Source of the DNA: a virus
Lineage: Duplodnaviria > Caudoviricetes
Length of the DNA stretch: 64,000 bases
Direction: 5' to 3' (one strand)
Virus record (IMG/VR): IMGVR_UViG_3300037312_001491
Location: 1 to 64,000 of that record
Shown: positions 9,489 through 18,136 of the stretch, piece after piece
Numbering within the stretch: the first letter of the stretch is position 1
Layout of the letters: each line of letters begins with the position of its first letter
Made by a program: the position numbers and the translations under genes
The notes under the pieces: generated by a model
Database searches by the model: none
Told to the model about the DNA's origin: nothing
What the model saw: the letters and a program-made list of their open reading frames with translations, nothing else

Positions 9489-10102
9489 CCCTCGGCCTTG
9501 TCGGGCTTGTCGGCGTCGCCCGCCTTCTCGGCCGCCGCGGCCTTCGGCTTCTTCGTCTTCTTCGCGCGCAGCTCGGCGACCTCGTCGGAGAGCTTCTTCA
9601 CCTGCTCCTGGAGCGTCTTGCGCTCGGCGAGGAGCTGGTTCAGGCGCTCGTCGCCACCGCCGGCAGCGTCAAGCTGTTCCTGCATCGTGCGCAGGTCGTT
9701 GAGCGCCTCCGTAAGGAGGTTGAGCGCGAACGCGACAGGGTCGGCGTCGGTCTTCTCGTCCGCTAGGCCGAGCGCGCGGATGCCGACCGCGAGGTTGACG
9801 AGCGCGTCCGCGCCGCCATCTGGCAGCGCCACGACGGGCGGGATGCCCGCGGCGGCGACCTCTGCCTCGGACGCGAGCGGCGCCGGGAACTCGTCGACCA
9901 GCTCCACGTCCGCGGCCGTGGCGGTCACGAAGAGACCGTCCGAGCGCAGGATGAGGAACACGAACTCCTTGCCCGACATCTCGGTAGCGACGACGGCGCC
10001 CTCGCAGTCGACGGCCGGCTGGCCGGTCTGCTCGTTGAGGTGGCGCCAGCGGACGCGCGGGCCGGTGAGCACGAGACCCATCGAGATGGTGCCGGCGTTC
10101 AC
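9485..10102 (-). CDS. Hypothetical protein with C-terminal coiled coil and Lys/Ala tail
   Basis: Heptad-like segment LNDLRTMQEQL...LQEQVKKLSDEVAEL. Confidence 0.55.
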   Translation of the reverse strand: MNAGTISMGLVLTGPRVRWRHLNEQTGQPAVDCEGAVVATEMSGKEFVFLILRSDGLFVTATAADVELVDEFPAPLASEAEVAAAGIPPVVALPDGGADALVNLAVGIRALGLADEKTDADPVAFALNLLTEALNDLRTMQEQLDAAGGGDERLNQLLAERKTLQEQVKKLSDEVAELRAKKTKKPKAAAAEKAGDADKPDKAEG

Positions 10103-10368
10103 GAGAGCACCGCCTTGGCGGCGATGATGCGCGCGGCGACGGAGGTGTTCTCGTCGTCGCGGAGCGCGAGTGTGCTAAGGGTGGCCTTGATGTCTTTGAT
10201 CATGTCGAACATCTCCTCGTGCCTGGACTTCCAGCGGTTGGCGTAGCCGAGCAGGGTGACGGCGGCGTCGACCCGGTCGACGGTTGGGAGCTTCTCGTTC
10301 CCGATGGTCGCAAGGAGGAACTCCACGACGGGAAGGTCGGGGTCGGGCTTCGCGGGTTCGTTGTCCAT
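10099..10368 (-). CDS. Hypothetical protein
   Basis: ORF with GC3 bias, overlapping next gene. Confidence 0.5.
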   Translation of the reverse strand: MDNEPAKPDPDLPVVEFLLATIGNEKLPTVDRVDAAVTLLGYANRWKSRHEEMFDMIKDIKATLSTLALRDDENTSVAARIIAAKAVLS

Positions 10369-10388
10369 GTCCCGTAGACGCCTTGGGC

Positions 10389-10417
10389 TTGCGTCGAATT
10401 CCGCCTGGTGCTACGAA
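10389..10417 (+). promoter_or_regulatory. Promoter of tRNA-Leu cluster (leaderless leader ORF follows)
   Basis: TTGCGT-N17-TACGAA then ACAGTC-ATG. Confidence 0.55.
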
Positions 10418-10423
10418 ACAGTC

Positions 10424-10489
10424 ATGCACCGGTTCCGCCACATCGTCGCCCTGCGGCTACTTGTCGCGGCGCAGTTGCGCGCGAACTGA
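10424..10489 (+). CDS. Putative Leu-sensing leader peptide MHRFRHIVALRLLVAAQLRAN
   Basis: Four Leu residues with four different codons (CTG, CTA, CTT, TTG); stop is 7 nt before first tRNA-Leu. Confidence 0.6.
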   Translation: MHRFRHIVALRLLVAAQLRAN

Positions 10490-10496
10490 TCCTCTC

Positions 10497-10571
10497 GCCG
10501 GCGTAGCCCAGGCAGGTAGAGGCAACGGTCCCAAACACCGCCCAGCGCGGGTTCGAGTCCCGCCGCCGGCA
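10497..10571 (+). tRNA. trnL: tRNA-Leu(CAA), short variable loop
   Basis: GCCGGCG/CGCCGGC acceptor, loop CC-CAA-AC, GTTCGAGTC T-loop. Confidence 0.8.
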
Positions 10572-10572
10572 C

Positions 10573-10645
10573 GTCGCGGTAGCCCAATGGCAGAGGCAGC
10601 AGGTTGAGAGCCTGTCCAGTGCGGGTTCGAGTCCCGCCCACGGCA
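10573..10645 (+). tRNA. trnL: tRNA-Leu(GAG), short variable loop
   Basis: Anticodon stem GCAGG/CCTGT, loop TT-GAG-AG, T-arm GCGGG-TTCGAGT-CCCGC. Confidence 0.85.
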
Positions 10646-10649
10646 CGAC

Positions 10650-10723
10650 GCCATCGTAGCGCAATTGGTAGAGGCGCCAGACTCAGGATCTGGTTAGTGC
10701 GGGTTCGAGTCCCGCCGATGGCA
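10650..10723 (+). tRNA. trnL: tRNA-Leu(CAG), short variable loop
   Basis: GCCATCG/CGATGGC acceptor, CCAGA-CTCAGGA-TCTGG. Confidence 0.9.
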
Positions 10724-11117
10724 CGACTAGCCGGGGATGCCCCGGCACTCCCAGCACCACCCGCACCGGTGCTCCGGGCAGCAGTGCAGCTCGCGTCGCG
10801 GGTCGACGACGTTGCAGCGCAGCTCGCGCCGCGCCTCGACGCTCGCGCGGTAGGAGGCGCGTTCGTCGTAGCGAGCGGCCGCCTCGCGGACGATCTGCCC
10901 GATGGTCGGCGGCACGTACTCGATCCACTCGGGCGAGGCGATGGCCGGCTCCGTCTGCTTGTAGAGGGAGCACCAGGTGTAGCCACCGGTGTTGATGCGG
11001 CGGACGTGGGGCTGTGCGTACGGACGGTGAGCGGCCCGGACCAGGCCACAGGCGTCGCAACCGCGTCGCGGGTCGGTGGCCGGCGCGTTGTGCGGGTTCG
11101 TGACCGCGTAATCGTGG

Positions 11118-11453
11118 TCAGGTGCCACGGAGCCCTCCGCCAGTCTCGCTGTTGCACCCTGCGCACGCGGGGCGGATGTTGCCGCGGACGTAGCGCCCGC
11201 CCTTGCAGCCGGGCACGATGCGGTCGACGGTGACGGTCTGCTCGGTGAGCAGTGTCCCGCAGCGGTAGCAGCGGCAGACCGGCACGCCGCCACCGAGAAA
11301 GACGGTGCTGTTGACGTTCGGGTCAACACAGAGGTCGACGTTCGCGCGCCACGCCGTGACCAGCCAGCGCCGCCGCGCCGCGCGGTCGCGCGAATTGCCG
11401 CGGGCGTTGCTGTTGCTCGTGCCACGCGTAGCGGGTTGCGACTGGCCGGTCAT
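11118..11453 (-). CDS. HNH endonuclease-family protein
   Basis: CYRCG...VTVDRIVPGCKGGRYVRGNIRPACAGCNS. Confidence 0.75.
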   Translation of the reverse strand: MTGQSQPATRGTSNSNARGNSRDRAARRRWLVTAWRANVDLCVDPNVNSTVFLGGGVPVCRCYRCGTLLTEQTVTVDRIVPGCKGGRYVRGNIRPACAGCNSETGGGLRGT

Positions 11454-11818
11454 CGGAAGATGCAGGTGGTCGGTTCGACCACGGCCCAGTCGTTGGAGGT
11501 GGCGTCGAGGACGATGGGGAACAGCAGCTCCAGGAGCAGGACGTCCCCGATGACGTAGCGGGTCTGGACGGTCGCGTGCACGTAGCATGTGCCGATGACG
11601 CTGTCGCCAACGCGCGCCGTGATGGCGTGGTCGTGACGCCCCTCGACGTAGAGGCGGTGGTGGTCGGCGCGGCCGACCGGAACGTCGTCAACGGTGAACT
11701 CCGCCGACATAGGCACTGGCACGGTGATGGGCACGTCGGTGGCGTCGTTGAACATGCGGCCGCAGGCCGGCAGAGCACCGGCAGCGATGAGGACGAGAGC
11801 GAGCAGGGCGGTCTTCAC
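11450..11818 (-). CDS. Putative lipoprotein (PEGA-like beta fold possible)
   Basis: GTG start, KTALLALVLIAAGALPAC lipobox, AEFTVDDVPVG. Confidence 0.55.
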   Translation of the reverse strand: MKTALLALVLIAAGALPACGRMFNDATDVPITVPVPMSAEFTVDDVPVGRADHHRLYVEGRHDHAITARVGDSVIGTCYVHATVQTRYVIGDVLLLELLFPIVLDATSNDWAVVEPTTCIFR

Positions 11819-13944: not shown

Positions 13945-15597
13945 CTATTCCTCGTCCTCGTTCTTTTCGACCGGCGCCGCCTCACCACGGACGAAATCCG
14001 AGATGATCGCAGGGAGTGCGGCGTCGAAGCCGACGACGTCCATCATGCCGGAGTCGCCGGGGTCGGCGATGGTTTGCGCGGTCGCGACCATGCCAACGAC
14101 AACCGAGCGCGCGTCGACGCCCGAACGCCGGCGGTAGTCCTGGAGCGCGATGTGCGGATGGCGCGCGCCGCGGAAGGTCTCGTTGTCCGTGTAGACGACG
14201 AAGCCGGCCGGCTTGGCGCCCGTCTGGATGGCCCACTCGAACGGCAGCGAGCAGTCCGTCGCGCCGTACGGGATGCGGCCCATGACGTGGCACGCCTCGG
14301 CGAGGCGCATCGACTTGTTGATCGGCACCTCGACGAAGTGGTGCGAGAACCCCATCAGGTGGTAGTTCGGCTCCGCGTGCGCCGTGACGAGCGCCATCGC
14401 CGCCGCGGCCTCGCGGCAGCTGAGCAGGCCGTTCGCGGTGCTGTGCGAGGTCATCGAGCCCGACACGTCGAGCGCGAGCAGCATCGGCTTGCCGACCGGC
14501 ACGACGTTGCCGAACGAGCCGTAGAACGCGGCATCGAGCGCGTCGTTGACGACCTGCACTGGCGTCCAGGACAGCTCGCCCTTGAGGCCGTGGCCGCGCC
14601 CGTACATCTTCGCCGCGATGAGCACGGCCATCGGGTGGACGCGCGAGCGGCGCAACGCCTCGCCATCGGCGAGACGGGCAGCGACGTACATCGACGCGTC
14701 CGACAGCGGCGCGATGAGGCCGACCGCGGTCATCTTGGCGAGGTTGCGGATCAGTGCGGTCGGCGGCATGCCGTACTTGCCGGCGCGCAGCAGCGCGTCC
14801 CACACCTCGACGTTGTTGAGGTGCTGCGTCGGGATGGCCTCGCGCGGCAGACCGTAGTCGCGGATGAGTGAGATGAGGCGCTTGACGTCGCACGTCTTGG
14901 CCTCCTCGAACGCCTGAATCGTCGCCGGCAGGACGAGCCCGTCGGCGTAGCTCGTGCGCGCCCACCGGTAGATCGCGCCGTGGTCGGGCGTCGCCGGATG
15001 CGGGTGCGCGAGCTTGATGAGATCGCGCGCGGCCCAGCCGTCGCGCTGCTGGTACTTCACCAGCTGGTACGCGAGGTCGGAGGCCGACTTCTCGTTGAAC
15101 CACTTCGCGACCGCGCGGCGCATGCCGCGGCCCCAGCCGTGTCCCATCGACTCGACGAACGCGACGAAGTGGTAGAGGTGCGTGCCGGTGCGGCAGACCT
15201 TGGGCAGCGCCTCGTAGGCGAGCTGGCGCGTGTTCTCGTGGTGGTGCCGCGCCTCGGGGTCCTCGACGCCGACGTTGGCGGCGATGGCGAGCGCGAAGAT
15301 GGCGGGGTTGTTCTTGGGCGCGCGGCCCGACTCCGAAATCTCGACGATGCGGCGGACCAGGCGCGCGCCGTCCGCGAGCGCGAGGCGCAACACGACGAGC
15401 GCGTTCTCGCGCGAGAGCTTGCGCTCGTCGACGTAGAACGTGCCGCCCTCGCTGCCGAGGATCAGGAAGCGGTCCAGGCGGGACCAGTCGTCGACGACGA
15501 AGCTGAATCCTCCTGCGTGGTTGGGTGCCTGGCTGGGGTGCGCCTGCTCGGTCTGCGGGACGGGTCCCAGGGCGTTCTTCAAGTGCTCGATCGACAT
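13945..15597 (-). CDS. rsr: Ro60/Rsr RNA-binding protein (TROVE + vWA)
   Basis: NHAGGFSF.VDDWSRLDRFLILGSEGGTFY, GRAPK, VCRTGTHLYHF, GWGRGMRRAV, LVKYQQRDGW, ALDVSGSM, VYTDNET. Confidence 0.95.
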   Translation of the reverse strand: MSIEHLKNALGPVPQTEQAHPSQAPNHAGGFSFVVDDWSRLDRFLILGSEGGTFYVDERKLSRENALVVLRLALADGARLVRRIVEISESGRAPKNNPAIFALAIAANVGVEDPEARHHHENTRQLAYEALPKVCRTGTHLYHFVAFVESMGHGWGRGMRRAVAKWFNEKSASDLAYQLVKYQQRDGWAARDLIKLAHPHPATPDHGAIYRWARTSYADGLVLPATIQAFEEAKTCDVKRLISLIRDYGLPREAIPTQHLNNVEVWDALLRAGKYGMPPTALIRNLAKMTAVGLIAPLSDASMYVAARLADGEALRRSRVHPMAVLIAAKMYGRGHGLKGELSWTPVQVVNDALDAAFYGSFGNVVPVGKPMLLALDVSGSMTSHSTANGLLSCREAAAAMALVTAHAEPNYHLMGFSHHFVEVPINKSMRLAEACHVMGRIPYGATDCSLPFEWAIQTGAKPAGFVVYTDNETFRGARHPHIALQDYRRRSGVDARSVVVGMVATAQTIADPGDSGMMDVVGFDAALPAIISDFVRGEAAPVEKNEDEE

Positions 15598-16393: not shown

Positions 16394-16422
16394 TTGACGA
16401 CCTCGCGCGTAGAAGGTATCAA
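16394..16422 (+). promoter_or_regulatory. Promoter of main tRNA array (leaderless leader ORF follows)
   Basis: TTGACG-N17-TATCAA then CCAGTC-ATG. Confidence 0.65.
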
Positions 16423-16428
16423 CCAGTC

Positions 16429-16557
16429 ATGATGACCAGGGCATCCACCGAAACGTTCGCGAAGCGCGCCAGCGCTGCGACGGTGTGGTGCGTCCGCGGT
16501 CACGAGTACCAGGGCACCATCAACCCGTCGGATGACGCGGAGGCCCTCGATAGCTGA
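16429..16557 (+). CDS. Putative attenuator leader peptide MMTRASTETFAKRASAATVWCVRGHEYQGTINPSDDAEALDS
   Basis: 42 codons, all 20 amino acids, 31 distinct codons; its 3' end forms one strand of an antiterminator. Confidence 0.7.
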   Translation: MMTRASTETFAKRASAATVWCVRGHEYQGTINPSDDAEALDS

Positions 16558-16582
16558 CCAGGCGTAATAGCCGAAAGCCGTC

Positions 16583-16620
16583 GAGGGCGCCCCGGGAAAC
16601 CGCGGCGCCCTTTTCGTTTT
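16583..16620 (+). terminator. Intrinsic terminator (attenuator) upstream of tRNA array
   Basis: GAGGGCGCC-C-CGG-GAAA-CCG-C-GGCGCCC followed by TTTTCGTTTT. Confidence 0.85.
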
Positions 16621-18055: not shown

Positions 18056-18136
18056 GCGGGCTTGAGGTGGCGCCGCCGACGAGGTCTAGAACGACTCGGT
18101 GGGCGTTCGCCGGTGCGAATCCGGCGACCCGCTCCA
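18056..18136 (+). tRNA. Atypical tRNA-like gene, anticodon ambiguous (hairpin contains TCTAGAA)
   Basis: Acceptor GCGGGCT/GACCCGC plus TCCA and T-arm GCCGG-TGCGAAT-CCGGC present; D arm unclear, irregular extended anticodon arm. Confidence 0.5.

Follow-up and report, generated by a model that had tools for sequence, protein, structure and literature searches.

The locus described here is a triplet of tRNA-Leu genes with the anticodons CAA, GAG and CAG, preceded on the same strand by a promoter-like site and by a short leader that contains an open reading frame (ORF) of 21 codons (Table 1). It lies in the window, by which we mean the whole stretch of 64,000 nucleotides that was analysed, corresponding to the first 64 kb of an IMG/VR record of 88,095 bp that is rated complete. 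The phage genome has an overall G+C content of 68% and contains rIIA/rIIB-like genes, a Ro60/TROVE-like gene, and genes for a portal protein, a tape-measure protein and a baseplate hub. A close cultured relative was not found (the best portal match is 37% identical), and DNA matches to cultured phages are limited to tRNAs and an HNH endonuclease gene, the latter being shared with actinophages. Judging from the G+C content and the actinophage matches, the host is probably an actinobacterium. The sequencing runs containing this stretch are soil, rhizosphere and groundwater metagenomes. One metatranscriptome was also matched, at 5% of words and as contigs only, with the matching pieces being tRNA-like and derived from other organisms.

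Relatives of the locus were found through a protein search with P0001, the product of the divergent gene upstream of the triplet, which returned its own cluster and one further 90% cluster. Eight Logan or JGI contigs (L006 and L008-L014) reach into the intergenic region and form the basis of the comparisons below. A second protein search with P0002 as the query gave the same contigs again, and a related-locus search with P0001, P0002 and the portal protein yielded no useful relatives. Scans with DNA patterns, of viral contigs (triple T-arm, paired anticodon arms and 5' half of the first tRNA) and of metagenome contigs, gave 0 matches, near-identical records lying outside these searches.

Table 1. 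Features in and next to the leader of the tRNA-Leu triplet (window coordinates).
Feature	Coordinates	Strand	Remarks
P0001	10099..10368	-	89 aa, function not assigned; divergent, upstream of the tRNA triplet; anchor for finding relatives
-35-like hexamer TTGCGT	10389..10394	+	TTGCGY kept in all three promoter versions
Extended -10-like element TGC-TACGAA	10409..10417	+	Relatives have TGC-TACTAC (L009, L010, L011, L013) or CGC-TATGAT (L012, L006)
Predicted transcription start, A of ATG	10424	+	7 nt past the -10 element; placed from spacing only
21-codon ORF, MHRFRHIVALRLLVAAQLRAN	10424..10489	+	Stop codon TGA at 10487-10489; no Shine-Dalgarno sequence possible
Long irregular leader hairpin	10430..10488	+	RNAfold; apex loop UACUU inside the CUA-CUU leucine codons
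tRNA-Leu(CAA)	10497..10572	+	ARAGORN, Rfam 46.6 bits; 76 nt, short variable loop, C33 in the anticodon loop CCCAAAC
tRNA-Leu(GAG)	10573..10646	+	ARAGORN, Rfam 47.9 bits; 74 nt, short variable loop
tRNA-Leu(CAG)	10650..10724	+	ARAGORN, Rfam 59.3 bits; 75 nt, short variable loop, Leu-type D loop AAUUGGUAGA

The tRNA-Leu triplet and its promoter

All three tRNA genes score well against the Rfam tRNA model (46.6-59.3 bits, with a gathering score of 29). The first-pass annotation, made from the sequence of the window, had identified the genes and their anticodons correctly but listed them as CAG, GAG and CAA, the reverse of their actual order. The same three anticodons are present, in the same order, on every relative contig that extends far enough, and in tRNA-Leu(CAA) the anticodon stem and the T stem both show compensated changes, including pair 27:43, which varies with compensation among the relatives (A.C, A-U, C-G). 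The genes occupying the other two positions are not always the same, with a different GAG tRNA of 86 nt and a long variable arm at the second position in L010, L012 and L013, and a different CAG tRNA in the third position in L009 and L011. A literature search on short-armed tRNA-Leu in phages returned nothing relevant.

A comparable triplet is found in Bixzunavirus (cluster C1) mycobacteriophages such as Bonray (MK112533.1), which, like the window, contain three adjacent tRNA-Leu genes with the anticodons CAG, GAG and CAA, two of the three being short (74-75 nt). The two triplets are 69.6% identical over 168 nt. By contrast, the Bonray genes are ordered CAG-GAG-CAA and lie within a longer tRNA array after tRNA-Ser, and they have no homologous leader or promoter; no homologue of the leader was found in cultured phages. 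The gap before the Bonray Leu triplet contains a 19-codon ORF with four leucines, which is taken as a chance occurrence because it lies in a pyrimidine tract and has neither a promoter-like site nor a ribosome-binding site.

The triplet has minus-strand genes as its neighbours to the left and right, which places it head-on inside a leftward gene block, and it thus needs a promoter of its own. The promoter-like site proposed in the first-pass annotation is present at the positions given there, consisting of TTGCGT-N17-TACGAA with the -10 hexamer at 10412-10417, followed by the 6-nt spacer ACAGTC and an ATG at 10424. Alignment of the window and the eight relatives revealed three versions of this site. 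The first, TTGCGT-N17-TACGAA-ACAGTC-ATG, occurs in the window, L008 and L014 (with the spacer ACAGGC in L014), and the second, TTGCGC-N17-TACTAC-GCAGTC-ATG, in L009, L010, L011 and L013, while the third, TTGCGT-N16-TATGAT-GCGCGT-ATG, occurs in L012 and L006 and arises through a 17-nt indel that rearranges its surroundings. Common to all three is the pattern TTGCGY-N16/17-TAYNAN-N6-ATG. The first two versions lack a T at the last position of the -10 element and have a TG one base upstream of it, and the third has the canonical TATGAT and no upstream TG. From the ATG onward, ATGCACCGGTTC is invariant among the relatives, and the three bases preceding it vary. A simple strict-consensus scan of 9800-11200 called no promoter, having missed this one because the last base of its -10 element is A.

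The architecture is shared with that of the main tRNA array of the phage, as the first-pass annotation had noted. Upstream of the main array, TTGACG-N17-TATCAA-CCAGTC is followed by an ORF of 42 codons (16429-16557). The 15-nt TANNAANCAGTCATG has exactly two occurrences in the window, at 10412 and 16417 (0.03 expected), each of them directly before a tRNA cluster, and CAGTCATG likewise occurs twice in the whole 88-kb genome, on either strand, only before the two tRNA clusters. Taken together, a sigma-70/SigA-type promoter with an ATG at its predicted +1, at or next to A10424, is well supported by sequence conservation and by its recurrence at the second cluster.

All 20 amino acids are represented in the 42-codon ORF of the main array, a property found in 0.6% of ATG-open 42-codon stretches of the genome and in 0.2% of 42-residue windows within its long ORFs. 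Its single leucine is at codon 40, and it is followed by a canonical hairpin-plus-U-tract terminator situated directly before tRNA-Tyr. This block is 96% identical in the relative L015, and no Leu tRNA was called by ARAGORN in the main array.

The 21-codon frame and its leucine codons

The ORF is open, with an identical start and stop, in all eight relative contigs, which fall with the window into two leader haplotypes only. Haplotype A is found in the window, L008, L014 and L009, and haplotype B, with the peptide MHRFAHIRTLRLLAAARLRAD, in L010-L013 and L006. The two differ at 10 of 66 positions without an indel and retain the start, the stop and all four leucine positions, the first leucine codon being CTG in haplotype A and CTA in haplotype B. 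When 10 substitutions are placed at random, the ORF and its four leucines are kept in 8.7% of trials. Elsewhere, the relatives show 3 indels in the 62 intergenic bases outside the ORF, against 0 in its 66 bases. As there are only two leader haplotypes, these comparative tests are weak.

The differences between the haplotypes do not have the pattern of a conserved protein. They are distributed 4/4/2 over the three codon positions, with pN of 0.18 and pS of 0.11 (dN 0.20, dS 0.12), giving a dN/dS of about 1.7. By contrast, three flanking genes compared between the same pair of genomes have a pS of 0.20-0.27 and a dN/dS of 0.1-0.4, with changes mostly at third positions. Thus, the peptide sequence is not under purifying selection, which is not fatal for a leader peptide but removes the usual evidence of coding. 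Codon-usage log-odds, trained on the phage's own long high-GC3 ORFs, place haplotype A between coding and non-coding sequence and haplotype B among non-coding sequence, and the likelihood ratio over both is near 1.

Translation of the frame is nevertheless plausible given its position. For mycobacteria, Shell et al. 2015 (PMC4633059) give a rule by which leaderless translation requires an AUG or GUG at the 5' end of the transcript and requires nothing more. The ATG at the predicted +1 would, under this rule, make translation of the 21-codon ORF plausible. The ATG stands at the predicted +1 in both tRNA promoters. Several real-looking genes likewise follow a promoter-like site that puts an ATG at the predicted +1 (1696 and 29438 on the minus strand, and 29552, 34635 and 82979 on the plus strand), making leaderless translation plausible in the phage. 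Across the genome, the generic promoter-plus-RTG pattern shows no enrichment, with 14 matches as against 10.7 +/- 3.5 in shuffles. As an open frame at the predicted +1 the ORF is real, and judging from its sequence context it may be translated.

As to its content, the first-pass annotation had described a 21-aa ORF with four leucines encoded by four different codons, and these were confirmed (CTG at 10451, CTA at 10457, CTT at 10460 and TTG at 10475). Its designation as a Leu-specific leader was an overstatement, because arginine and alanine are as frequent as leucine, each occurring four times. Among the ATG-initiated 21-codon open stretches of the genome (n = 1343), 6.3% contain at least four leucines, 2.5% contain three leucines within four codons, and 2.0% combine both properties, as does the ORF with its LRLL-type cluster.

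The leucine codons were also said to match the tRNAs encoded downstream. In the window this applies to three of the four codons, but CTA is read by none of the anticodons CAA, GAG and CAG. When the leader codons are compared with the tRNA content of the relatives, the leucine positions are kept in both haplotypes and the match drops to two of four in haplotype B, which has CTA twice and CTG not at all, yet still has the CAG tRNA in its cargo. The phage as a whole uses CTC for 48% of its leucines, CTG for 37%, TTG for 8%, CTT for 3.6% and CTA for 2.7%, and the three tRNAs cover approximately 97% of this usage. The leucine codons of the leader are mostly among the rare ones (three of four in haplotype A and all four in haplotype B). 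Several weak signals, each with p of 0.02 to 0.1, favour a constraint on the leucine codons of the ORF.

Predicted fold of the leader

RNAfold predicts a long irregular hairpin for the leader, the 3' base of which includes the stop codon, with 8 nt remaining single-stranded before the first tRNA. Its energy is -26.7 kcal/mol in the window (z -1.45), -29.4 kcal/mol in L014 (z -2.2) and -31.0 kcal/mol in haplotype B (z -2.7), in which the pairing of the arms slips into a shifted register along an alternating GC tract and gives a more stable refold. In the minimum free energy (MFE) structure of the leader together with the tRNA, the leader forms its hairpin and the tRNA its acceptor and T arms, side by side, and the same arrangement is obtained in the consensus of five haplotype sequences. 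As to covariation, three pairs carry a compatible change on one side, three others are broken (in the common register), and double compensatory changes are absent. A leader hairpin that is stable in every haplotype is therefore plausible from the fold predictions, and unproven by covariation.

The leader was searched for the elements of a conventional regulatory switch. No terminator-like site is present in 9800-11200, in agreement with the first-pass annotation, which saw no terminator between the ORF and the tRNA; the hairpin has a weak base and is followed by AUCCUCUC, which contains no U tract. No mutually exclusive antiterminator and terminator helices were found over the ORF, a single hairpin being common to the MFE structure, the centroid and the consensus of the alignment. 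A search of 10300-10800 against Rfam (E<=1) matched no family to the leader and returned only tRNA and chance hits overlapping the tRNAs. A T-box riboswitch was considered, and the T-box covariance model has no match in the same interval.

Readings of the leader

We lean towards an ordinary tRNA-Leu operon, with its own promoter and a structured 5' leader, in which the ORF is incidental and possibly translated as a leaderless frame. The sigma-70/SigA-type promoter, with its TTGCGT and TGC-TACGAA elements and N17 spacing, would start the transcript at or beside A10424, and the resulting 73-nt leader would fold on itself into the long hairpin, leaving the 8-nt single-stranded linker as the site at which RNase P would cut to release the first tRNA. 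In a host of the kind suggested above, the 21-codon frame at the predicted +1 might well be translated as a leaderless mRNA, and it would be a by-product of a conserved, G+C-rich leader, with no sensing of leucine and no gating of tRNA output. The Arg/Ala/Leu composition of the peptide is as expected of a G+C-rich frame.

Operons of this kind are familiar from bacteria and phages. For example, leuQPV of E. coli is a three-gene tRNA-Leu operon, and such operons have a sigma-70-type promoter and a 5' leader that is processed by RNase P. The phage locus resembles them in its private promoter, its short leader of the untranslated type, its tandem tRNA-Leu genes and the absence of a terminator before the tRNAs. 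It differs from them in the ATG at the predicted +1, which opens a 21-codon frame spanning the whole leader hairpin, and in its tRNAs, which lack a long variable arm.

A more elaborate possibility, which we consider unlikely, is that the ORF is a leaderless sensor of leucine codons that controls the tRNA-Leu operon by a mechanism other than pairing with the tRNA. In this model, a ribosome would linger on the LRLL codons (CUG/CUA-CGG-CUA-CUU), which lie at the hairpin apex, and would thereby hold the hairpin open. What becomes of the nascent precursor would change in consequence, for example through access of Rho or nucleases or through pausing of RNA polymerase, such that tRNA-Leu output would rise when leucine decoding is slow, with no terminator involved. 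The leader would then be a counterpart, for one amino acid, of the all-20-amino-acid leader upstream of the main array. As a Leu-sensing partner of that leader it makes a coherent idea: the main-array ORF combines all 20 amino acids with a terminator, and has its only leucine at codon 40 in front of an array in which no Leu tRNA was called.

Several observations are consistent with such a sensor. All three promoter versions put the ATG at the predicted +1, where the mycobacterial rule for leaderless translation (PMC4633059) would apply to it; the leucine codons are mostly rare and lie at the apex of the hairpin; their clustering has a p of approximately 0.02, and retention of the ORF and the leucine positions a p of approximately 0.09; and the indels found in the other intergenic bases spare the ORF. 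A precedent exists in mycobacteria, in which leaderless polycysteine sORFs act as attenuators through ribosome stalling (Canestrari et al., bioRxiv 10.1101/834739). The phage leader resembles these sORFs in its G+C-rich and probably actinobacterial setting, in beginning at the predicted +1, and in that a stalled ribosome would melt an RNA duplex. By contrast, the next gene in the phage is a tRNA, which has no ribosome-binding site, and the output step of a Cys-type attenuator is therefore missing.

Comparison with the classical attenuators leuL, trpL and hisL is similarly two-sided. The phage leader shares with them a short promoter-proximal ORF and a modest cluster of codons for one amino acid within a hairpin, and classical leader peptides also use rare codons. 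It differs from them in having neither an intrinsic terminator nor an antiterminator alternative, in that its leucine codons do not form a pure run (LRLL plus one), and in that its cargo consists of tRNAs rather than biosynthetic genes. With neither a terminator nor an alternative helix present, the sequence points to no output step. Further points against a sensor are that CTA is left unread by all three tRNAs while haplotype B, with two CTA codons and no CTG, keeps the CAG tRNA; that arginine and alanine are as common as leucine; that the leader is represented by two haplotypes only; and that a stable hairpin beginning at +7 could hinder loading of the 70S ribosome at a leaderless 5' end.

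Much less probable is the mechanism put forward in the first-pass annotation, in which the strand at 10451-10471 pairs with 10496-10511, comprising the -1 base, the acceptor 5' strand and the D arm of the first tRNA, and so blocks its folding, until a ribosome stalled on the leucine codons masks this anti-tRNA strand. The 14 claimed pairs are all Watson-Crick, their helices alone are worth -18.4 kcal/mol, and the 6-bp core GGCUAC:GUAGCC is invariant across all relatives. However, the complementarity is not above chance: of 1000 dinucleotide-shuffled leaders, 29% form an equally strong or stronger duplex with the tRNA 5' half, and 69% do so with the whole tRNA. Neither the MFE nor the centroid structure of leader plus tRNA contains the pairing, nor does the consensus fold of the five haplotype sequences, and enforcing it costs 7.3 kcal/mol. 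In haplotype B, the change of G10453 to A breaks the outer CUG:CAG helix without compensation, and position 10496 is U or A in relatives. The strand to be masked is already paired in the leader hairpin, and the proposed pairing involves a single tRNA of the triplet, the first.

It is equally doubtful that the ORF, co-transcribed with the tRNAs, has as its product a small basic peptide (net charge approximately +4) with a function of its own: the ORF is retained in relatives, its net charge is kept between the haplotypes while the arginine positions move (R5A, V8R, Q17R, N21D), and haplotype A has a gene-like GC content at the three codon positions (0.76/0.38/0.90), but 6 of 21 residues have changed between close relatives at the dN/dS noted above, any G+C-rich frame yields Arg/Ala-rich peptides, and the leader has no counterpart in cultured phages.

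If the sensor were real, the phage would measure the decoding of the codons of one amino acid and feed the result back on its own tRNA genes without a terminator. To our knowledge, decoding-based control of this type is established for amino-acid operons and synthetase genes, and not for tRNA genes; our search of the literature found no description of translation-coupled feedback control of tRNA genes. The firm result is smaller: a reverse-oriented tRNA-Leu operon, in a phage lineage that has no cultured relatives, is served by a well-supported promoter that puts an ATG at the predicted +1 and by a conserved leader with a predicted hairpin. At approximately 110 bases, the locus offers a small and clean test case for the proposed gating of phage tRNA arrays by codon-matched leaders.

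Exchange within the tRNA-Leu triplet

The three tRNA-Leu genes of the window (10497-10724) are all short, 74-76 nt, with variable loops of 4-5 nt, and retain a Leu-type D loop, which reads AAUUGGUAGA in the CAG tRNA. In close relatives an 86-nt GAG tRNA is found, and the contigs L009 and L011 have a CAG tRNA that differs from that of the window. Thus tRNAs 2 and 3 are exchanged as cassettes, whereas tRNA 1 remains joined to the leader.

The anticodon loop of tRNA 1, tRNA-Leu(CAA), is CCCAAAC (window 10528-10534), which places a C at position 33, where U is near-universal in tRNAs. C33 is present in all haplotypes, including those with the loops UCCAAAC and CCCAAAA, and the closing pair 27:43 varies with compensation (A.C, A-U, C-G). 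Separately, an 81-nt tRNA at window 18056-18136, with loop region TCTAGAA, is called Ser(AGA) by ARAGORN; if read with C33 like the CAA tRNA, its anticodon would be UAG, that is, a tRNA-Leu reading CUA. It has an irregular acceptor stem and an encoded CCA.

Genes near the triplet

The neighbouring HNH endonuclease gene shares about 74-79% DNA identity with HNH genes of Actinoplanes, Mycobacterium, Gordonia and Nocardia phages. One relative (L009) has an insertion of an IS1595-family transposase gene, unusual within a phage genome, at a distance of a few hundred bases from the triplet. The Ro60/TROVE plus vWA gene, whose L009 homologue contains PF05731 and PF25045, lies with the Leu triplet on one side and the main tRNA array on the other; no YrlA or Y RNA was detected at the Rfam gathering score in the entire window.

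Features of the tRNA regions and candidate promoters
Feature	Location	Remarks
GAG tRNA, 86 nt	L010:3471-3556; L012:37-122; L013:574-659	long variable arm; same position as the window's GAG tRNA
HNH endonuclease gene (HNH_5)	window 11118-11588 (-)	adjoins tRNA-Leu triplet
HNH endonuclease gene, relatives	L010:2702-3067; L014:126-461	beside tRNA-Leu triplet
IS1595-family transposase gene	L009:5777-6802	Zn_ribbon_IS1595, DDE_Tnp_IS1595
Ro60/TROVE plus vWA protein gene	window 13945-15597 (-)	phrog_850
Promoter-like site, 42-codon ORF and terminator	window 16394-16620	directly upstream of tRNA-Tyr
TTGNNN-N16-18-TANNNN with ATG	window 1696 (-), 29438 (-), 29552 (+), 34635 (+); genome 82979 (+)	

Candidate leader ORFs and leaderless promoters

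The promoter-like site of the block preceding the main array shares the CAGTCATG start of the tRNA-Leu locus and opens a 42-codon ORF. This ORF contains all 20 amino acids, as do 0.2-0.6% of comparable stretches, and is followed by a strong hairpin-plus-U-tract terminator immediately 5' of tRNA-Tyr. In the relative L015 the block has 96% identity, with three non-synonymous changes and one synonymous change.

In Mycobacterium phage Bonray (MK112533.1), the 192-nt gap upstream of its own tRNA-Leu triplet contains a 19-codon ORF (L003:1319-1378) that starts with ATG and includes four Leu codons, namely CTT, CTC, CTT and CTT. This ORF probably arose by chance, since it falls within a pyrimidine-rich repeat and is accompanied by neither a promoter-like nor a Shine-Dalgarno site.

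The generic promoter-plus-RTG pattern shows no enrichment relative to shuffled sequence (14 vs 10.7). Several ORFs elsewhere in the genome have protein-like N-termini, including a lipoprotein-like signal peptide in one case, and lie behind TTGNNN-N16-18-TANNNN sites that are followed by an ATG after 6-7 nt; this suggests the use of leaderless mRNAs by the phage.
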